This document shows positions 1-45,565 of a stretch of DNA of 64,000 nt, one piece after another. Under the pieces are notes generated by a model that saw only the letters and a list, made by a program, of their open reading frames with translations, did no database searches and was not told the DNA's origin. Each line of letters starts with the position of its first letter. Positions within the stretch are counted from its first letter, which is position 1. Made by a program: the position numbers and the translations under genes. The stretch lies in the IMG/VR virus record IMGVR_UViG_3300043409_002109, positions 86,206 through 150,205 of that record, one strand, 5' to 3'. The stretch comes from a virus.

Positions 1-1296
1 CTCTAAGCGCTCACGACGCTCTTGTTCCTTGCCATCACGTATAGCTGCTACGTCCTGAGTGATACTCTGATAGCTTATGCCCGTGAAGTCAGACAGTTGC
101 TTCGTTAGAAGCTCTCTCCGTATCGCGCTTGTTTCGGCTGCTATAAGAGGAACCATACTGGAGCATACTTCGTCAGCTGCAGCTTTGTCTGAGATGCGTC
201 CGAGGACCCATTCAAACGCTGGCACCTTTTGAAGATCGGTAAATGGTTTACCAGTCTTCTCATTAGCAATGAGTTCGCTGGGATCTTTGGCCTCTGTGTC
301 TCCAGGAATGACAACAGAGCAGCTTACTCCGGGGGCGAACTTAATTTCATTCATTAGAATGCGCTCAGTGGCCCCTGTGCCGGCTTCGTCCCAGTCTAGG
401 CAGAAGTATGCCTGACGGATTCCAAGCATCTTCAGTAGAGCCAGGTGCTCACCGGTGAAGGCAGTGCCACAGACAGCTGCTACGTTAAAGATCCCGACTC
501 TATGTAGTGCGGCCAAGTCTCCAGGGCCTTCTACAATATAGAGTCCATCTTTTTTCGCGCCAGCCTTAAGAGCAATATCGATACCTAATAGAATCTTCTT
601 CTTTTCATAGATAGCTGATTCATGGGAGTTGATGTATTTCGGGCCGCTGTTTCCCAGATTACGGCTAATGAAACCGACAGGGCGTCCTCTATAGTCTTTG
701 ACTACGAAAGTTAATAGCTCAGAGTCTATGAATTTAGTTGTACTCGTTCGAATCATCATACTACTGATGATATCTGTCTGAGACCAACCTTGCTCTTGTA
801 GTCTTGAGCTTAACTCTCCAGAGTCTATTGAGCCTATAGTAAGACGATCTCTAGACCATCCTCTTTCCTTGCAGTAAGCTGTACCCTCTTCTGAAGCGTG
901 AGCTTCTAAGATGTTGCTAATGTCATTAGCTAGTTTTAAGAGCTTAGCTTTCTCTTTCTCAGCGGGGCTTATAGCGCCCATCTGCACTTCGAGCCCCATC
1001 TGCTCAGCTAATGCGGGGAGTGTTTCTGTTATAAACTCTGGCCCGCTTATAGGCAGGTTCTCGATAACAGAAGCGGCGCGAAAGATATCGAAATCTCCGC
1101 AGCCGCTCCAGCATCTAAAAGTCTGATAACCACTCTTCGGATTATATGAGCAGCTTGGAGTTTTATCTTCATGAGAGATGCAATGAAACTTTGCTTTAAC
1201 ATTACCTGCCTCTGCACCTAAATGTTTTTCTAAATAATTGGTTAACCGTGGGCGTAGCTCCGCCACAAGTTCATTTACGTTACTGATATATGACAT
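1..1296 (-). CDS. dnaG: DNA primase (DnaG), runs off the window edge
   Basis: Absent from the ORF track; translated by hand from ATG at 1296. N-terminal Zn finger (CISHEDKTPS...CWSGC), GRPVGFISR, GPKYINS, TOPRIM motifs IVEGPGD and CLDWDEAG. No stop before position 1. Confidence 0.93.
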   Translation of the reverse strand, partial: MSYISNVNELVAELRPRLTNYLEKHLGAEAGNVKAKFHCISHEDKTPSCSYNPKSGYQTFRCWSGCGDFDIFRAASVIENLPISGPEFITETLPALAEQMGLEVQMGAISPAEKEKAKLLKLANDISNILEAHASEEGTAYCKERGWSRDRLTIGSIDSGELSSRLQEQGWSQTDIISSMMIRTSTTKFIDSELLTFVVKDYRGRPVGFISRNLGNSGPKYINSHESAIYEKKKILLGIDIALKAGAKKDGLYIVEGPGDLAALHRVGIFNVAAVCGTAFTGEHLALLKMLGIRQAYFCLDWDEAGTGATERILMNEIKFAPGVSCSVVIPGDTEAKDPSELIANEKTGKPFTDLQKVPAFEWVLGRISDKAAADEVCSSMVPLIAAETSAIRRELLTKQLSDFTGISYQSITQDVAAIRDGKEQERRERLE

Positions 1297-37649: not shown

Positions 37650-38105
37650 TTATAAGTCGTAGATATGGATAGCACGATTATTGAAAACATTTTCTATAAT
37701 TTCTTCAATAAGCTTCCAATCACCACCTGCTCTTCCGGCACCAATTCTTCCACTTGCTACTATTTCTTCATCAAGTATTTTCCAAATGCTTAAACGATCT
37801 TTAAGCGCTTGAAGACTTGTATCTAAAGCATAGTAATCGAGATGACATTTATCTAATCCATATCGATATTGAGTATAGAGATTAACAAGAATCCGATTGT
37901 CTTTTAAAGCATGAGTATAGGAAGTAGTACCTAATTTTCCTAAGTCTCCTTTTGGAGTCTGAAGATCTGCTCGATAAGCTTCCGGATATCGCTCGCGCAT
38001 TTCTTTGGCTAAGCCTGAATTCATGGTGCAAAAACAATTAGCACCATGGAAGATTACTTTAGCTTGAGAGTCAAAGACATTACCTCTGACATATTTAATT
38101 GGCAT
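37650..38105 (-). CDS. macrodomain ADP-ribose-processing protein
   Basis: GNVF, HGANC...M.SG.A, NLYTQ, RIGAG.AGGDW. Confidence 0.88.
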   Translation of the reverse strand: MPIKYVRGNVFDSQAKVIFHGANCFCTMNSGLAKEMRERYPEAYRADLQTPKGDLGKLGTTSYTHALKDNRILVNLYTQYRYGLDKCHLDYYALDTSLQALKDRLSIWKILDEEIVASGRIGAGRAGGDWKLIEEIIENVFNNRAIHIYDL

Positions 38106-38197
38106 TTTAGAATCTCATTTTTCAGTTTTTGGAATTAATAGGAAGTGCTTTTGTCGAAAATTGAAATTTATAAAATTCTAATTCCTTAATTCGCGAA

Positions 38198-38980
38198 TCA
38201 TATAGGAAACTTGTGAGGACTAAAGATAGAGGGGCAATAAGAAACAGGATTCTTCACAGAGAGACTTCTTATAGGCGCCCCCTCTTCTAGAATCAAAGCA
38301 GTTAAGGCCCCACCATGAACACAACCAGTATCCAAGCCAATAGCATAAGGAAAGATACGAGGTCCCATAGAATTCAGAAAAGGCTGATGACCAAAGATTA
38401 CTGTACCATATCTACCTTCGTATATCTCCGCCCAGTAAGTATCATATTGAGTAATACTATGTATATCTTTAACAGATTTTCCTGTTGGAGTAATGTATCT
38501 GGTACGTAAAATTTTCTCTAAAGATTTTCTAGGAGTGCTCGAAAGTTGGAAAAGATCTTTAATTAGGAGTTCGTCCTTTAGATCTATATGTTCAGGCGCG
38601 ATACCTCCATGAACACACATGTATTTTTGATCATTTATTATAAATGAATAATAAAGGTATCCTTCTAATAACCAATCTATGTCTTCTCGGGTTAAGCCTT
38701 CCTTTTCGAAGTCTTCTACCCATGTCATGAGTCTACGCTCTTCTTCGGTCTTTATGTACCACCTGTAATGCTTATCTTCATGATTAGCAAATATGAATTT
38801 AACATTACAGTTCAGGTTTTTTAAGATCTGAATAATTTGATGGCCGTATCCATTCCTCTTATGGAATAAATCACCGAGACTAATAAAAGTATCTTCTTGA
38901 GTTAATTCTAATGTCTTAAGAAGGATCTGTAATGTTTCTATACATCCATGAATATCACCTATACAAATTGTTCTTCCCAT
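38198..38980 (-). CDS. PPP/ApaH/Pnkp-type metallophosphoesterase
   Basis: IGDIHG, LGD, NHE, VHGG, FGH, LDTGCV.GG.LTA. Confidence 0.88.
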   Translation of the reverse strand: MGRTICIGDIHGCIETLQILLKTLELTQEDTFISLGDLFHKRNGYGHQIIQILKNLNCNVKFIFANHEDKHYRWYIKTEEERRLMTWVEDFEKEGLTREDIDWLLEGYLYYSFIINDQKYMCVHGGIAPEHIDLKDELLIKDLFQLSSTPRKSLEKILRTRYITPTGKSVKDIHSITQYDTYWAEIYEGRYGTVIFGHQPFLNSMGPRIFPYAIGLDTGCVHGGALTALILEEGAPIRSLSVKNPVSYCPSIFSPHKFPI

Positions 38981-38982
38981 AA

Positions 38983-39501
38983 TTATTCCTCTATAGTATG
39001 AGAAATAATACCGTATTTACTTAGTTCTCTTTCATTATTCTCTTGAAGAGTCTTATGTTCTATAACAATGTCATTAACTAAATGTATTACTTTTAGTTCT
39101 ATTAATTCAATAAGATCATTAAAGTAACCTTGGCTAGCATTTTGGAATTGAATCCATTCTTCAGGAGATAAATAATTGGTTTTACGATGAATCCCTCTTA
39201 CATTAAGAAGAAATGTTAACATCATTTCTTTACCAATATCTTGACAAGCTCCGGGGATATATTCTTCAAGAACAATTAAACATTTTGGCATACCATCTTG
39301 TTCAATAATCTTCCAGATATCTGTTTTATGCTCTTCTAACAATTGTAGATCATTAATTATATGAGCAACTCTATTAGTTTCTTGATGAAGGATTTCTGCT
39401 AGCTCTTTTAGAGAGTATTTTTTCTCTTTGATTATTAGGAATCCTAATAAATGAAAGAAGTTTGATAGTAGTTGTCGAATATTCATTGGTTTATTCCTCA
39501 C
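38983..39501 (-). CDS. hypothetical protein
   Basis: ORF in the operon. Confidence 0.55.
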   Translation of the reverse strand: MRNKPMNIRQLLSNFFHLLGFLIIKEKKYSLKELAEILHQETNRVAHIINDLQLLEEHKTDIWKIIEQDGMPKCLIVLEEYIPGACQDIGKEMMLTFLLNVRGIHRKTNYLSPEEWIQFQNASQGYFNDLIELIELKVIHLVNDIVIEHKTLQENNERELSKYGIISHTIEE

Positions 39502-39545
39502 AGCGAAGGGGAGCCATAGGCTCCCCTTCTTGTGGTACTGATAGT

Positions 39546-41042
39546 TTACTTATTTAAAGTTTCTTGAACAGTCATTAGTTTTTCTTTCATTTCTGGAGAA
39601 AGAACTTCGTTGAACCGACTACATTCTTTCCAACTCATGCGTGCATGAGTACGTACTAGGTTGAAGTAGTCAAACTGATAGTCTACTGGACCTTGATCCC
39701 AGATGACTTCAAGAAGATCATCTAGTGTTTCAAGGTAAGGGAAAACCATCAAGTTAGCTTTATTAAGATCATGGCTTTCATAACAAACAGAGAAATTGCC
39801 AGGCAGACTGATTTTAGTTACGTCACTTGATGGACGCTTCATAATGGGTTTTACAGTACCATCTTGAAGTTCTATTTCACATGCCTTGATAGCAGCCTTT
39901 AAGGTGTCCCTATTCTGTTTCTGAAGTAGTCCGCCACCCATACCATAGGCAACACACTGAGCGCTATAGCCAGCTCTGTAAACAGCATCTGCGATGGTTC
40001 CTATATCTTGCAATTCAAGACCATCACCTTGGATAAGACCAGCGCCATTGATAACTCGGTAACCCAAAGAGTTTTTGGTGCTGCCAAATGCCTTTTCAAG
40101 ATAGAATAATCCATCTAGCACTGCCTGCTGGGGGTCTCCCGAATCAGGTCGTACTACAAAGAACTGGTTCTTTGCGCGGCAAGGCTCAACAATAAGAGGA
40201 AGAATTTCTTTAAGAAATCTATGATAATCATAAGAATCAGCAACCACAGAAAGGATAGCACCCTCAGGAGACTTCTCAATAAGATTGAGAATAGCTTTGA
40301 GTTCGGAATCCCAAGTGGTCATAACAGAATGCTCTGTGGCAATGACAGACTGACCGATAGGAACCCCAGCATTCCACTTGGTAGCAAGCCAGCCTGCAGT
40401 CATGGTATCTGTGCCTTCAAAGAACAATAAATGGCCAATACCTGTAACCATAGCAGTCTCAGCGGAACTCGTGCCGCGACTGCCGAAGTCATGGAACCTA
40501 CTATCAAGTAGAAAGTGAGAGTCAGGATCTACAGTCTTTTCAAAGTAGAACTCAAGACAATCACGGACTAAGGCACTCTTAGTAGCAGTACATGAAGGCG
40601 ACCATAGCCGCATTAGACGAGATTCCAAGAATGTAACTAATCCCTGATAGGGCGCTTTGGCAGAAATGACAAAGCAAGGTATGCCTGGGTGTACGCACTG
40701 TCCTTCTCGAAGAGATCGGATTGTGACAGGCCAATACCCATTGTTCTCTTCAATTACCTTAATAAACAGATCACGAGGATATTGATACTGTGTACCAGCC
40801 ACACCATGATGGGCCAAGTATTCATCAGCTTCGTAAATATCTTCCATTGTAATGGGGACACTCAAGAAGGATTCGTACATCCATCTCATACCGAAGAAGA
40901 CAATTCTACTATCTTCTATGGGGAGTGTATTACCTCTGAACGTGAAATAAGCATTAATTCTTTGAATATCTGGAGAATATTCTTCAGGATGACCCATTTT
41001 GTAAGAATCAGCATCTAATAGTGTTGGAATATGTATATTCAT
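39546..41042 (-). CDS. nadV: nicotinamide phosphoribosyltransferase
   Basis: DSYK..H, FFG, HDFGSRG, ATEHS, SVVADSYD, VRPDSGDP, IQGDG, G.GGGLLQ..NRDT...A.K. Confidence 0.95.
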   Translation of the reverse strand: MNIHIPTLLDADSYKMGHPEEYSPDIQRINAYFTFRGNTLPIEDSRIVFFGMRWMYESFLSVPITMEDIYEADEYLAHHGVAGTQYQYPRDLFIKVIEENNGYWPVTIRSLREGQCVHPGIPCFVISAKAPYQGLVTFLESRLMRLWSPSCTATKSALVRDCLEFYFEKTVDPDSHFLLDSRFHDFGSRGTSSAETAMVTGIGHLLFFEGTDTMTAGWLATKWNAGVPIGQSVIATEHSVMTTWDSELKAILNLIEKSPEGAILSVVADSYDYHRFLKEILPLIVEPCRAKNQFFVVRPDSGDPQQAVLDGLFYLEKAFGSTKNSLGYRVINGAGLIQGDGLELQDIGTIADAVYRAGYSAQCVAYGMGGGLLQKQNRDTLKAAIKACEIELQDGTVKPIMKRPSSDVTKISLPGNFSVCYESHDLNKANLMVFPYLETLDDLLEVIWDQGPVDYQFDYFNLVRTHARMSWKECSRFNEVLSPEMKEKLMTVQETLNK

Positions 41043-41047
41043 TTTAA

Positions 41048-41086
41048 CCTCTTTATGAGTTTTGTTACGATTGCGAGCTTATGCTC
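41048..41086 (-). promoter_or_regulatory. structured leader motif over the nadV RBS (copy 1)
   Basis: GAGC-AUAA-GCUC hairpin plus 23 nt identical to the nadM leader. Confidence 0.65.
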
Positions 41087-42170
41087 AGGTTCGAAGACAC
41101 ATTTCAGCTATAATTGAACTGTGATCTTCGAAGATTATCTCAGACATATTGCCTAAGATTTCGTTTAGCGGAATGAATTTGCTCTTAGCAGCATCATCAT
41201 CAGCACGATGAGTAACTTCTAGAACATCAGGGATGCGCCACAAGTAACCTTCTGTGATTGTACGACCTCGTTGACTCCGCAAAGGATGATCAAAAGATCG
41301 TACTTGCTGGATCCATGCTGAATCCATTGGTACTCGGGTTGTTCCATTCTTTGTATGTCTGAAGATCTCAATATGAGTCTCTTCTTGAAGTTCACGTTCA
41401 GCTGCTGCTCTTTTGGTTTCATTAACATTCAAGAACCCACCTGGTAGCGCCCAGAGGCCCATACCAGGACGATGGCGGCGCTGAATCATAAGTACCATTC
41501 CACGCCATAGCACTATGTTATCTACCGTTTGAAAAATAGGAGGATAGGGCAAAACCCGATATGGCTCTTGATAGTTCTGTTCAAATTTATACTCTTTGCG
41601 TAGCCAATCAGCTTTAGTATCTAGAATCCAGAAATTGAGATAATTATTAACCCCAGGAGAACAATCTGGATAGGTCTGATTAAGAGGGCCAGTAAGAAGT
41701 TCTTTGCGTACATCAGTGGCGTTATAGATTTTAGTCCCTAGTTCAACGGGACTAATCTCTATACGATTCCATTGAGGGAATATCTTAAGATAATAACTAG
41801 TATCATCTTTATTAAAACCATAGAGAGTGATTTCGAAGTTATTTTCTTCACCGCTTTTAGACCATAGTCTAAGATTTTTCTTATTGTTTTCTATGGCATC
41901 TTGGATAGCATATTGCCATCGAGTATCTGAGTAAGGATAATCTCGGATACCTTGAAAGAACATTCTTTCGAACTCTTCTTTTGTAAACGCTTGGTGAAAC
42001 ATTTCAATACGTTCATGAACATTGAATGGACATCTAGTATTAGGTGCCTGATAGGCAGAACCTAATAAGATTATGACAGCATCTTGTTCTGCAAGTATCT
42101 GGCGAACAACTGCTTCATGGCCCTTATGAAGGGGAGAAAATCGGCCTATGAAGACCCCGACACGCATCAT
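41085..42170 (-). CDS. nadM: bifunctional NMN adenylyltransferase / ADP-ribose Nudix hydrolase (NadM-Nudix, NatV-like)
   Basis: GRFSPLHKGH, GS, PF...ER, NATDVR, WALPGGF...E......RELQEET, DDA, FEDH. Confidence 0.95.
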   Translation of the reverse strand: MMRVGVFIGRFSPLHKGHEAVVRQILAEQDAVIILLGSAYQAPNTRCPFNVHERIEMFHQAFTKEEFERMFFQGIRDYPYSDTRWQYAIQDAIENNKKNLRLWSKSGEENNFEITLYGFNKDDTSYYLKIFPQWNRIEISPVELGTKIYNATDVRKELLTGPLNQTYPDCSPGVNNYLNFWILDTKADWLRKEYKFEQNYQEPYRVLPYPPIFQTVDNIVLWRGMVLMIQRRHRPGMGLWALPGGFLNVNETKRAAAERELQEETHIEIFRHTKNGTTRVPMDSAWIQQVRSFDHPLRSQRGRTITEGYLWRIPDVLEVTHRADDDAAKSKFIPLNEILGNMSEIIFEDHSSIIAEMCLRT

Positions 42171-42176
42171 TTTTAG

Positions 42177-42216
42177 CCTCTTTATGAGTTTTGTTACGAA
42201 TTAGTCCTTATGGACT
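42177..42216 (-). promoter_or_regulatory. structured leader motif over the nadM RBS (copy 2)
   Basis: AGUCC-AUAA-GGACU hairpin plus 23 nt identical to the nadV leader. Confidence 0.65.
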
Positions 42217-42229
42217 TTTCAATCATAGC

Positions 42230-42257
42230 ATAAGGGGTGCCTTTCGGCACCCCTTAT
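42230..42257 (-). terminator. hairpin downstream of membrane-protein gene
   Basis: ATAAGGGGTGCC-TTTC-GGCACCCCTTAT (GAAA loop on the mRNA strand). Confidence 0.6.
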
Positions 42258-42263
42258 CTTTAG

Positions 42264-42596
42264 TTACTTCATTACTATTTCACGGAACTTTCGTTCGATT
42301 TTACCAGTTACGCCTTCGTATCGAAGCTCAAGGCGCTCCTTCACATCAGGATTATCATCCATGTATTCTGTCATTATGAATCCAAGATCGATGAGCAACC
42401 CGGCTACAGTAGCACCAAAGATTGCAACAATGCTTTTAGATACAGAACTTAGAGTGATGAAGACAATTGTAAAAACAACAACATCTGTAAAAAGCCTATT
42501 GGCTTTAAAGAAGTTTTGAACTATTACAGGCATTTTATGGAAAGAGATTATTGCAGAAAGGAACGTGAGAAATCCGAGAATGAATCCAGCTATCAT
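42264..42596 (-). CDS. small multi-pass membrane protein
   Basis: Three hydrophobic segments; coupled to the AAA gene. Confidence 0.65.
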   Translation of the reverse strand: MIAGFILGFLTFLSAIISFHKMPVIVQNFFKANRLFTDVVVFTIVFITLSSVSKSIVAIFGATVAGLLIDLGFIMTEYMDDNPDVKERLELRYEGVTGKIERKFREIVMK

Positions 42597-43513
42597 TTTT
42601 TCATTCCTATGATTAGGCTAGTTAAGGGAGGGCACACCTCTGAATCTTCTTCTTCTTCTTCTTCTTCTTCAATCGTTACAGGAACTTTTGCCATTAGCTT
42701 TAGACGATTTGCTTCTGCCTGTAATGGCTTATTATAAACCAATATAGAAAGAATAAGTTCTTTACAAAAGTCTAAAACCAATCCGTCACTGGCTTCGACC
42801 ATAGGTTCTAGCCATCGTTCTTTATCTTCTGGATGAAGTTTTGCATTGAAGAATGAGCGTCGCATTTGAACAGATGGAGTTTTTACTTCTATGATTCTGT
42901 TGAACCTGCTGGGTCTAGCCTTTAATCTGTCTGGAATTTTATCTATATAGTTAGTAGTTCCTATGTAGATAATATTTTCAACAGTAGAACGGCCGTCTAG
43001 AAGTTCTAGAATTCTATTCTCGTAATTTATAAGATAACTATCTATTTCTTCCCATATCACTAGAATTGGATATGTAGGATTTTTAGTAACTACACGAATA
43101 TTTTCTATGAACTTAGAAACTAGATCGGGAGGAGGATCTATTAGAACAATATATCCAGCTGATATAGCAGCTTCTTTAACTCGATGGATTACATAAGTTT
43201 TTCCAGTACCAGGAGAACCATGAAGAAGTAACCCACTTCTATATAGAATATTATATCTTTGGTATCTCTCTTTAGTCTCTACTGTAAAGAATTCATTAAT
43301 AAAATCTAGAGTTTCCACAGAAGCTTCATCTTCTAAAGGAATAAGATTCTCAGTTACTATTGAAGTAGGGACTAACCACTGCTTGCCTGTAAATTGATTA
43401 ATTCCTACTTTGTATACTCCAGGAGGAATAATTTCTATAAGATTCGATATATCTGGAAGTGTGCTAAATACAATCCATTTGTCTTCGTCTATATATACTT
43501 TATCAAATGCCAT
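42593..43513 (-). CDS. AAA+ ATPase
   Basis: GLLLHGSPGTGKT, WEEID, LLDG, TTNY, RPSRF. Confidence 0.88.
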   Translation of the reverse strand: MAFDKVYIDEDKWIVFSTLPDISNLIEIIPPGVYKVGINQFTGKQWLVPTSIVTENLIPLEDEASVETLDFINEFFTVETKERYQRYNILYRSGLLLHGSPGTGKTYVIHRVKEAAISAGYIVLIDPPPDLVSKFIENIRVVTKNPTYPILVIWEEIDSYLINYENRILELLDGRSTVENIIYIGTTNYIDKIPDRLKARPSRFNRIIEVKTPSVQMRRSFFNAKLHPEDKERWLEPMVEASDGLVLDFCKELILSILVYNKPLQAEANRLKLMAKVPVTIEEEEEEEEDSEVCPPLTSLIIGMKK

Positions 43514-43772
43514 CTAATACTCCATTAATAATTAGAACCCAAGGTTTTCCGGTAAACATACAAATAGTAACTTGATTACCATATCGAACTAGTTGCCCAG
43601 CTCTACCAGGCGTATTCGAAGAAGCTCTCTCATATCTACCTGATTCATATTCGAGATAGGGTCTATCGGGAAGATCTCTATTTATTTCTATCCATTCAGA
43701 TTGGTCTGTCAATCTTATTTTTAGAAAATCTGTATGAAGCCAGAAATGAAATGTTTTGTATAAGTTTTGCAT
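43503..43772 (-). CDS. hypothetical protein
   Basis: GAGG RBS before MQNLY. Confidence 0.55.
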   Translation of the reverse strand: MQNLYKTFHFWLHTDFLKIRLTDQSEWIEINRDLPDRPYLEYESGRYERASSNTPGRAGQLVRYGNQVTICMFTGKPWVLIINGVLDGI

Positions 43773-43820
43773 GTACCTCAAATACACAGGGCGCCATAGG
43801 CGCCCTGTGTATAGCAATTA

Positions 43821-44162
43821 TTAGGTCTGTAGTTCTATTGGAGCGCTAAATAGTAATTGAGTTAAGAATAATTCAAAGTCTTCTCTATAACCTTCAGGCA
43901 ACCAAGATAGAGGAATATTAATAATCTCTTTGTCTTTAATCGATCTTTTATGATCGTATTGACTTACCCTCAGCCAAACTTTTTCTACGCTTTCCGCTCT
44001 TAGAATATATGCTATCTGTCCATATTTTTCATGTTTAACATAAGTTCTGACTATAATAGCATCTTTAGTTTTATGAATGTTCCAATTAGCTTGTTTAAGA
44101 ACTTTAGGTTCATAGAGGAGTTCATCAAAAACTTTTTCTATATTCTCTGGCCTAGGCATCAA
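43821..44162 (-). CDS. hypothetical protein
   Basis: Coupled to the ligase gene. Confidence 0.55.
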   Translation of the reverse strand: MMPRPENIEKVFDELLYEPKVLKQANWNIHKTKDAIIVRTYVKHEKYGQIAYILRAESVEKVWLRVSQYDHKRSIKDKEIINIPLSWLPEGYREDFELFLTQLLFSAPIELQT

Positions 44163-45565
44163 GATACCTCTTCTATATCGATGTAGTTATCATCTTCTTT
44201 GGTCAAACCTTCGAGATATAAGAATTTAAAAGCTTTATTCTTAAAAGTTCTCATCAATTCGGGGTGAGTAACTTCAATGCAAACTCCTTCAGAAATATGT
44301 TCTGGGAATTGCTTTGAAGGCTGTTCTGCAAGATTATTAACTATTTCTAGGAAGTCTATTTTGCCACCTAGAGTCAATTCATCTACAGTTCCGTAAAACA
44401 GGCGGGGAACATGATACAGACCTAATACAGAGCATCTAGCAAGACGCTGGGGGTAGCTGAGATCTATTTGGTGTCCATCTGGATTAGTATGAGTAATCCG
44501 ATAAATCCAAATTTGATGTTCACCAAGTTCTGCGTCACAGTTATAAGAATATTCCATTTTAGAACCATTCATATAGCTTTTATACTGTTTAAGAATCTCT
44601 GCTCCAATACCATCTTTTTTTACATTATGATGAAATAGAGGAGAATTGGGCGCCTGATATCCTACGATTTCATAGTAAAGAGTTTCTCCTTTATGGAGAA
44701 CGCCTGTTAAAGATTCATGAATCCTTTCTCGGAATCCATTGCCCTTGTGGTATCCATCTACGATTTTATCAATGAAGGCCACGCGACGACTGCCGCTAAT
44801 AGTTTCATATTCTTCAGTAGTAAGATCTAAAGCTTGGAAAATCTTATCAAAAGGATTAATTCCAAAAGCTATATTGTTACATATCTGTCCTAATCGGATA
44901 GCTAAAGTTTGGTACCAATTGATTTCACGCTCTCTTCGAACTAAGACGTTACCAGTTCGACCTGAAGTTCCATGAAGCTTTGCAGTTATAAGTATCTGAG
45001 CATCCTTAGGGATTCTCTTATAATTGTATTTAAAGTTTTCAGTATCAAAATGCTCAATAAATGTTGGCGCCCAAGCAAGCTTACGTTTGATTTTCTTTTC
45101 TTTATTATCTTTGTTTTCGTTTAGTCTCTGCTGGGCAGGGCTAACATATCTTTCGCAGATCGGTCTGCCATTCAATTCAGTGAATAGATAACCAGGGTGA
45201 ACTGTAGAAAAATCAAAGCCTGTATACTCTAGGCTAGATAAGGGCGCGATGTATCCTTCTGATACCTGTCCACGAAGTTTAATGCATCGAATACGACCGC
45301 TTTCTTCGAAGAATCCAAATTTATTTGCTTCTTTATTAGGACGAACTGAAGCCTCTGTTGTACTAGAATATCTATATTCACTATTTTCATATAGAAATTC
45401 ATTAGAGAATTTACCTCCTTCTGGGAAGAAGCAAGCCATATCTCCAACTTTATAATCAACGGTACTAATAACTTGTGAACCTGCGATATGAACAATTTTT
45501 AGTCCGTTATCACTATTGGGATGAGGCTCTACAGCAGTTATAACTGTAAAAATTCCGCTATACAT
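44159..45565 (-). CDS. ATP-dependent RNA ligase (DRB0094/Rnl2-like, N-terminal OB)
   Basis: HPN, KLRG..SEG, motif I TAKLHGTS, SR, YYEI.G, motif IV EGVCI, motif V FKNK. Confidence 0.85.
   Translation of the reverse strand: MYSGIFTVITAVEPHPNSDNGLKIVHIAGSQVISTVDYKVGDMACFFPEGGKFSNEFLYENSEYRYSSTTEASVRPNKEANKFGFFEESGRIRCIKLRGQVSEGYIAPLSSLEYTGFDFSTVHPGYLFTELNGRPICERYVSPAQQRLNENKDNKEKKIKRKLAWAPTFIEHFDTENFKYNYKRIPKDAQILITAKLHGTSGRTGNVLVRREREINWYQTLAIRLGQICNNIAFGINPFDKIFQALDLTTEEYETISGSRRVAFIDKIVDGYHKGNGFRERIHESLTGVLHKGETLYYEIVGYQAPNSPLFHHNVKKDGIGAEILKQYKSYMNGSKMEYSYNCDAELGEHQIWIYRITHTNPDGHQIDLSYPQRLARCSVLGLYHVPRLFYGTVDELTLGGKIDFLEIVNNLAEQPSKQFPEHISEGVCIEVTHPELMRTFKNKAFKFLYLEGLTKEDDNYIDIEEVS

Follow-up and report, generated by a model that had tools for sequence, protein, structure and literature searches.

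The virus genome IMGVR_UViG_3300043409_002109 (IMG/VR) carries two adjacent genes for the salvage of nicotinamide adenine dinucleotide (NAD), natV and nadV, and each is preceded by a leader in which a small hairpin is followed, directly before the start codon, by a second, predicted hairpin that takes in the Shine-Dalgarno sequence. Both leaders are read here as RNA-level cis elements of the natV-nadV operon and as a variant of a more general phage leader, whose loops would be bound by a reader acting in trans, a reading to which we give about an even chance. The window analysed is a stretch of 64,000 nucleotides (nt; positions 86,206 to 150,205), the right-hand 64 kb of a source record that is 150,205 bp long and rated complete. 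In this window, natV (41085-42170, minus strand) encodes a bifunctional nicotinamide mononucleotide (NMN) adenylyltransferase/Nudix protein (NadM-Nudix) of 361 amino acids (aa), with Pfam families PF01467 (CTP_transf_like) and PF00293 (NUDIX) and with homologues annotated as bifunctional NMN adenylyltransferase/nudix hydrolase, and nadV, its neighbour on the same strand (39546-41042), encodes a 498-aa nicotinamide phosphoribosyltransferase (NAMPT; PF04095 and PF18127, NAPRTase and NAMPT_N). Together, natV and nadV constitute the NARP2 NAD+ reconstitution pathway. With NARP2, which combines NAMPT and an NMN adenylyltransferase (NMNAT), phages rebuild NAD+ that has been destroyed by defence systems, and the pathway overproduces NAD+ and consumes phosphoribosyl pyrophosphate (PRPP) (bioRxiv 10.1101/2024.02.11.579819).

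Each of the two leaders is composed of a first hairpin (hp1), an A/C-rich linker and a second hairpin (hp2), where the linker and hp2 together form a 23-mer, TCGTAACAAAACTCATAAAGAGG (Table 1). A preliminary description of this DNA had held that the 23-mer is identical in both leaders, that an AUAA-loop hairpin stands before it at identical spacing and that the motif occurs nowhere else in the window, all of which was borne out: the two copies show 0 mismatches (0 expected by chance) and are separated by 5 or 6 nt from the ATG that follows, that of nadV or natV, each hp1 is found exactly 4 nt upstream of its 23-mer, and no third copy exists at ≤3 mismatches in the window or in the whole 150,205-bp genome. 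The first stem had also been said to covary, and between the window's two copies of hp1 the two inner pairs have been exchanged compensatorily (GUCC/GGAC vs GAGC/GCUC), with two of the four pairs covarying in relatives as well. Predicted minimum-energy folds contain CUC-AUAAA-GAG within the 23-mer, Shine-Dalgarno GAGG included, in agreement with the earlier claim that a second mini-hairpin covers the Shine-Dalgarno sequence.

The relatives used for comparison were obtained through exact-protein look-ups only, and they comprise syntenic contigs with a NadV that is 71% (L003), 69% (L005-7) or 62% (L170) identical, together with L171, where NatV is 58% identical, and L172, a rearranged contig with a NatV of 49% identity. 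In IMG/VR, a scan with single proteins brought up no close relative and no NadV above 53% identity, and megablast and blastn searches of cultured phages with the window DNA returned no DNA relatives. In five metagenomic relatives hp1 is kept on both genes, with four different stems, all of them paired. The resulting clade sample consists of no more than ten leaders, drawn from about 6 independent genomes; all 10 have hp1, and 100% of the cells of its 4-bp helix are paired. The outer G-C and the loop-closing C-G pairs are invariant, and the inner pairs covary, with 4 Watson-Crick types (AU/UA/CG/GC) at one and 3 (GC/CG/UA) at the other. The observed pairing or covariation score was matched by 0/500 shuffles, sliding the hp1 partners lowers pairing to 10-38%, and hp1 forms part of the predicted minimum-energy fold in 9/9 leaders folded. 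A covariance model (R1) built from eight clade leaders, with the natV leaders of the window and of L003 held out, recovers both of these and scores the window's natV leader at 24.4 bits (E 5e-4). Its matches are exactly the ten natV/nadV leaders in 134 kb and only two places in the 150-kb genome, where the next best place reaches 14.7 bits (E 0.2-0.5). Variable complementary arms around a conserved loop, on the sense strand only, are what marks an RNA hairpin, and the sequence comparison points to hp1 being one despite the small sample and the short stem. For hp2, the arm sets seen in the clade (CUC/GAG, GGA/UCC or GGA/UCU, and GAGA/UCUC) are all complementary and too few for statistics, and the predicted hp2 of the window has only 3 bp, with the Shine-Dalgarno sequence in its 3' arm.

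A third hairpin of the strict pattern, GCUC-AUAA-GAGC, lies outside the window at genome positions 509-520 (minus strand; GCTCATAAGAGC-AATT-GGAG), where it is followed by AAUU-GGAG and a GTG start and precedes a Gly/Pro/Glu-rich open reading frame (ORF). It stands in an end region, some 2.5 kb at the start of the genome, with a GC content far above that of the remainder. It was considered as a third element and rejected, being below R1 noise and most likely due to chance.

In the relatives, the nadV leader runs from the stop codon through GAGC-AUUAA/AUAAA-GCUC, (G/A)CAA or AAUU, an A/C-rich stretch and hp2 to the AUG, where an hp2 of the nadV type, CUC-AUAAA/AAUAA/AAAAA-GAG(G), is kept in L003, L005, L170 and L171; in L172, hp1 is GGGC-AAUAA-GCCC and hp2 is GAGA-AUUAA-UCUC. 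The natV leader of the relatives is made up of a GC-rich hairpin, the sequence TGnTAnnAT and, 6-7 nt further on, GUCC-(A)AUAA-GGAC (GCUC-AAUAA-GAGC in L171), while 3' of hp1 come GCAA or AAAU, (A/U)CGU, GGA-AUAAA-UCC (UCU in L003) and the AUG.

Alignment of these leaders bears on the origin of the identical 23-mer. The natV leaders of L003, L005 and L171 do not contain AACAAAACTC, the middle part of the 23-mer: in the natV leaders of the relatives ..CGU runs directly into AUAAAGGAAUAAAUCC, and nadV leaders add (AA)AAAACUC before AUAAAGAGG. Orthologous nadV leaders diverge in the 23-mer region, with TCGTAACAAAA of the window corresponding to CCGCCACCCC in L003, and only in the window does the natV leader join a hp1 of its own (GUCC/GGAC) to a nadV-type 3' half, letter for letter. 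Because orthologous natV leaders are without the middle of the 23-mer and nadV orthologues are divergent there, its identity appears to be the product of short-patch gene conversion that took place recently in this genome, with the nadV leader as donor and the natV leader as recipient; the tract would be bounded by the common ..CGU on the left and by the Shine-Dalgarno region on the right. This would be an event separate from any regulation, in which the 3' half of the nadV leader was copied into the natV leader. The natV leader of L171 ends in a nadV-type tail, GAGGTTAAT, which looks like another such exchange and suggests that the leaders swap pieces repeatedly. Two leaders that homogenise each other by gene conversion cannot have their sequence identity counted as constraint, and it is the hairpins, as opposed to the identity between copies, that provide evidence of it.

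The preliminary description had set a simple local duplication against its own proposal. Such a duplication or conversion, without function of its own, fits the identity of the 23-mer, which is specific to this genome and best explained by conversion, as is the tail of L171, and to that extent it stands. It fails for the hairpins, since hp1 and hp2 are kept with compensatory changes on both genes in relatives with NadV 56-71% identical, a distance at which neutral intergenic sequence would have diverged, as the linker has; as an account of the whole element it is very improbable.

Beyond this clade, a two-hairpin leader of phage NAD-salvage genes is widespread and uncatalogued. In its general layout, hp1 (3-10 bp, loop ANAGA) is followed by an A/C-rich linker of ~7-25 nt, an hp2 with the Shine-Dalgarno sequence, and the AUG, where hp2 has 5-7 bp, holds the Shine-Dalgarno GGAG(U) in its loop and ends 0-4 nt before the AUG; for membership, 4-7 bp and 0-6 nt were taken as limits. 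When unique leaders are counted and other genes of the same loci serve as the comparison set, the G[AUAGA]C hairpin is present in 20/138 nadV leaders and 9/103 natV leaders, vs 2/995 other genes, one of these two sitting between natV and nadV. An unbiased tally of hairpin loops brought up two that hold the Shine-Dalgarno sequence, A[GGAGU]U in 38 of the 242 NAD-salvage leaders (vs 2/997 other genes) and G[AGGAGUU]C in 16 of the 242 (vs 0/997), and a further class of hp1 loop, C[AGAGA]G, was also seen. Cultured phages that carry the leader on both genes are Ruegeria phage RpAliso, Roseobacter phage DSS3P8, Phaeobacter phage MD18, Rhodobacter phage RcXuper, Synechococcus phage B23 (S-B23, Kyanoviridae) and Xanthomonas jumbo phage LucasX. 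A second covariance model (R2), whose seed of 19 AUAGA-type leaders leaves LucasX and two further leaders outside, finds exactly two matches in each of five complete cultured phage genomes (146-306 kb), namely the natV and nadV leaders at 25-55 bits, and no other match at E≤1 in those five genomes. Rfam 15 gave no match in nine loci with the general-form leader, and a literature search found no paper describing a two-hairpin NAD-salvage leader.

The presence of NatV alone is not sufficient for hp1, which is absent from RB16, Vibrio phage D479, RsoM2USA and phiM7 though NatV is encoded in all of them; most keep the Shine-Dalgarno hairpin. In Escherichia phage RB16 (HM134276.1; L184/L292), natV and nadV lie ~70 kb apart and both have a Shine-Dalgarno hairpin (AACGUG-GAG-CACGUU and ACGUG-GAG-UACGU) and no ANAGA hairpin, so that hp2 can exist without hp1 and without linkage of the two genes. 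Among prokaryote genome contigs, the motif was found only in a phage-like contig of a Myxococcota metagenome-assembled genome and in a Psychrobacter contig, in a scan that covered mostly Methanobrevibacter NAMPT loci without the motif and carries little information on typical bacterial nadV. A three-hairpin form occurs in the metagenomic L153, L154, L163, L167 and L150 and in L200, a contig from a bacterial genome (Psychrobacter sp. Cmf 22.2), where a long GC-rich hairpin (..CGCCGCAxCUG ... CAGCUGCGGC..) stands between the AUAGA hairpin and a Shine-Dalgarno hairpin, GCAGA-GGAG-UUCUG. In L008 (4404-4418), an AUAGA hairpin is also found before a 179-aa ORF between natV and nadV, which suggests that the leader may mark a small regulon.

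Upstream of distant nadV and natV genes, AUAGA-loop hairpins closed by G-C, each with a stem of its own, number 47 in sense and 8 in antisense orientation. This count bears on whether the element is instead a DNA-level site, such as a palindromic repressor operator or a phage-specific promoter, in keeping with GNNC-ATAA-GNNC being an inverted repeat and with the natV copy lying just downstream of a promoter-like -10. There is little to recommend such a site, which we regard as a most unlikely explanation: in addition to the strand bias of the general form, the arms vary yet stay complementary around a conserved loop, which is the signature of an RNA hairpin as opposed to a DNA palindrome read by protein, the distance from hp1 to hp2 or the ATG varies by at least 10 nt, which a two-box promoter does not fit, and the nadV copy lies inside the operon with no promoter-like -10 upstream. 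A T4-type late promoter (TATAAATA) or two-box promoter was rejected for its variable spacing and for the position beside the AUG, which is unfit for it. A cassette-boundary or recombination site was also rejected, as hairpins of the hp1 type are missing downstream of nadV and, in the remainder of the DSS3P8 and RcXuper genomes, do not exceed chance.

The position of hp1 relative to transcription and to the upstream gene is regular. Upstream of natV, TGnTAnnAT recurs at a matching 6-7 nt from hp1 in L003 (TGTTACAAT), L005 (TGTTATGAT) and L171 (TGTTATACC); its counterpart in the window, TGCTATGAT, may act as a promoter, and in a sigma-70 promoter scan it was not listed, being without a -35. In roseophages, hp1 begins a few nt after a TTGACA-17-TAGAAA promoter, and before nadV it overlaps the upstream stop codon or begins 0-8 nt after it in the window, the relatives and the cultured carriers alike. 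Such placement would also be consistent with a constitutive structural leader that has no specific reader, where the hairpins stabilise the mRNA and present the ribosome-binding site independently of context, allowing the cassette to work after transfer; hp1 of natV would then lie at or near the 5' end of the transcript, and the cassette is indeed patchily spread among unrelated phages. This reader-less role is a serious rival, if on balance a rather unlikely one, and it leaves unexplained both the conserved loop (ANAGA, or A(W)UAA in the window's clade) vs the freely varying stems and the fact that other genes of the same phages are without such leaders.

How the window's clade relates to the general leader has to be judged from likenesses and differences. 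In both, the leader has sense orientation and immediately precedes natV as well as nadV, with no further copy in the genome; the order of hairpin, A/C-rich linker, hairpin bearing the Shine-Dalgarno sequence (predicted, in the clade) and AUG is the same, and hp1 adjoins a promoter or an upstream stop. The hp1 loops of the clade are AUAA, AUUAA, AAUAA or AUAAA closed by C-G, as opposed to AUAGA or AGAGA in the general form, and its hp2 has 3-4 bp with the Shine-Dalgarno sequence in an arm and an A-rich loop, as opposed to 5-7 bp and a loop that contains GGAG(U). The loop of hp1 in the window thus departs from the general pentaloop A-N-A-G-A (mostly G[AUAGA]C or C[AGAGA]G), R1 has no match in ANAGA-type loci, and by sequence the window's leaders are not members of the family. 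The nearest outgroups by NadV have, in the hp2 that precedes the AUG, GAGG-AGAGA-CCUC (L183), GGAG-AUAGA-CUCC (L181) and GAG-AAUAGA-CUC (L010), where the Shine-Dalgarno sequence is in an arm, as in L172 and the window, but the loop is of the ANAGA type. In a tree of NadV, the five rows of A(W)UAA type form one clade (support 97) nested among the ANAGA-type L008, L181, L183 and L010. Given this nesting and the matching position and architecture, the window's element is read as a derived, lineage-specific variant in which both loops changed together. In the natV leader of L181 (2340-2406), GAAG-AUAUA-CUUC, a further loop variant, is followed by AAAGG-ACAUG-CCUUU just before the AUG, and the loops of leaders from this region of the NadV tree appear prone to drift.

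Several points weigh against the reading of the leaders as a reader-bound variant of the general form. Both hairpins are short (4 bp for hp1, 3 bp for hp2) and thermodynamically weak (z-scores -0.2 to -2.0), the support for hp2 is thin, and the variant is known from about 6 independent genomes only. R2 has no match at E≤10 in the window's whole genome, so that kinship with the ANAGA family is a matter of position, architecture and the NadV tree as opposed to sequence. The tree itself was made with FastTree and a midpoint root, and the automatic typing of leaders missed some known carriers. For R2, the seed leaders were picked for having both hairpins, and their 98.9% pairing therefore holds by construction, which is not the case for the genome-wide specificity of the model. 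Finally, both the reader and the mechanism are putative.

In the mechanism that we favour, the recognition hairpin hp1 (G-N-N-C, loop A(W)UAA, G-N'-N'-C) and hp2, with the same kind of A-rich loop and the Shine-Dalgarno sequence as one arm, would be bound at their loops by a trans-acting reader, which is probably a protein and may be one of the two enzymes. Binding of this reader would lock hp2, which in turn would hold back translation of a costly, PRPP-consuming pathway. The element is thus likely a translational operator read by a protein and probably not a riboswitch. The preliminary description had proposed a cis-regulatory RNA, either a translational operator or small riboswitch sensing NAD, NMN or ADP-ribose or an element bound by NadM-Nudix. 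The cis-regulatory part is upheld insofar as the element is conserved, structured, on the sense strand, specific to two genes and part of a wider family, and it has lost the argument from the 23-mer, whose identity is not constraint; NadM-Nudix is a plausible candidate for binding the leader.

A similar arrangement is known from autogenous translational operators, including the T4/RB69 gene 43 operator, the E. coli thrS operator and the Bacillus PyrR binding loop, where in the last case a phosphoribosyltransferase homologue binds a leader hairpin. As in those systems, a small hairpin with a conserved loop adjoins or overlaps the ribosome-binding site of an enzyme gene, and feedback is plausible. 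The window's element differs from them in standing on two genes and in that its reader is only putative, and the analogy is one of function, with no match in sequence or structure.

A small riboswitch that binds NAD+, NMN, ADP-ribose, nicotinamide or PRPP and thereby opens or closes the Shine-Dalgarno hairpin was weighed as the alternative to a protein-read operator. The leader family follows its genes across phages of alphaproteobacteria, cyanobacteria and Xanthomonas, and such a spread across unrelated hosts is compatible with a reader that either travels in the cassette (as NatV or NadV would) or is universal, such as a metabolite; moreover, the Shine-Dalgarno sequence lies within a hairpin, and feedback on a costly pathway would make sense. 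The NAD+ riboswitches of class I (nadA motif) and class II (pnuC motif) likewise act in cis from the leaders of genes related to NAD, and the Shine-Dalgarno sequence is hidden in class II too. These riboswitches have internal loops or a pseudoknot and many conserved nucleotides, whereas in the window's leaders the conserved nucleotides amount to two loops of 4-5 nt with their closing pairs, with no internal loop or junction and no consistent pseudoknot. Pseudoknot pairing of the hp1 loop with sequence beyond the Shine-Dalgarno on its 3' side was looked for and dropped, as UCUAU-like complements exist in some leaders (RpAliso nadV, L153) and are absent in most, so that such pairing between loop and downstream sequence is not consistent between genomes. 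An Rfam 15 scan of positions 38000-45000 at E≤10, NAD+ classes included, produced four chance-level matches elsewhere and none in the leaders, and the nine general-form loci gave no match either. In addition, one clade has replaced ANAGA loops by A(W)UAA loops, with the likely ligands remaining the same, and this joint change is easier to reconcile with a protein that co-evolves than with a metabolite that does not change. A riboswitch is therefore improbable.

With the protein-read operator retained as the favoured reading, a further and more speculative step may be considered. The window's clade could represent a natural specificity swap of an RNA-reader pair, in which both loops went from ANAGA to A(W)UAA because the reader protein, which could be NadM-Nudix or NAMPT from the genes directly behind the leaders, had changed its specificity; we think this doubtful. 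Sites for CsrA/RsmA were also considered and rejected: the general-form hp2 resembles an A(N)GGA loop site, but the window's loops are without GGA. CsrA (PF02599) is absent from the genome of the window and from those of five cultured carriers, and several host groups are, to our knowledge, without CsrA.

The features of both leaders are given in Table 1. The 110-aa ORF upstream of natV (42264-42596, minus strand) has no Pfam family; the gene order AAA ATPase, 110-111 aa ORF, natV and nadV is kept in L003, L005 and L171, and the 110-aa ORF is also found in L172. The GC-rich hairpin that follows it has no real U-tract, with the TGnTAnnAT extended -10 directly after it, and its counterparts in L003 (3800-3830), L005 (3795-3822) and L171 (3905-3932) have entirely different stems (AAGGGGUGCC/GGCACCCCUU, GAGAGGGGUGC.., AUAGGUUGGUGC.., AAUACUGGAGUGC..). 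The NAD clusters of relatives hold extra genes, namely Acb5-like, NADAR, Macro, PolyA_pol-like and PP2C (L172 1292-1597, 3333-3800, 8563-8942).

Table 1. Elements of the natV and nadV leaders, in window coordinates.
Element	Position	Strand	Remarks
GC-rich hairpin, natV side	42230-42257	-	After the 110-aa ORF; terminator-like site in scan; probable terminator or stability hairpin
TGCTATGAT, putative extended -10 of the natV-nadV operon	42222-42230	-	hp1 begins 6 nt downstream
natV hp1, GUCC-AUAA-GGAC	42204-42215	-	5 bp if A42216 and U42203 are counted; in minimum-energy fold
natV linker and hp2, 23-mer TCGTAACAAAACTCATAAAGAGG	42177-42199	-	nadV-type; putative gene-conversion tract
natV hp2, CUC-AUAAA-GAG	42178-42188	-	3' arm within Shine-Dalgarno GAGG (42177-42180); predicted fold
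nadV hp1, GAGC-AUAA-GCUC	41075-41086	-	Its 5'-terminal GA belongs to the natV stop UGA (41085-41087); in minimum-energy fold; 31.4 bits
nadV A/C-rich linker and hp2, 23-mer TCGTAACAAAACTCATAAAGAGG	41048-41070	-	Putative donor copy; same type in L003, L005, L170 and L171
nadV hp2, CUC-AUAAA-GAG	41049-41059	-	Covers Shine-Dalgarno GAGG (41048-41051); predicted fold

The recombination of leaders also has a possible parallel in T4-type phages, where PeSL cassettes (promoter-early stem-loops) reportedly mediate recombination between repeated regulatory sequences, as Arbiol and colleagues are said to have described in 2010. As in a PeSL, a terminator-like hairpin and then a promoter stand before natV, and repeated regulatory sequences recombine, as in the conversion between the two leaders. 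PeSLs recur in many intergenic regions, as opposed to the window's element, of which 150 kb contains no more than two copies, each bound up with one of two particular genes.

A dedicated leader common to both genes would be the first known layer of control of the NARP2 counter-defence pathway, and it belongs with a leader family that has been conserved in phages whose hosts differ widely and that Rfam does not contain. The window's version, in which both loops are changed, offers a natural handle for finding the reader of these loops, and the cultured carriers (DSS3P8, RpAliso, MD18, RcXuper, S-B23 and LucasX) make the question of the reader directly testable. If the specificity swap is true, a comparison of the enzymes that go with the two loop types would point to the RNA-binding surface, and a metabolic enzyme would moonlight as the translational repressor of an anti-defence pathway.

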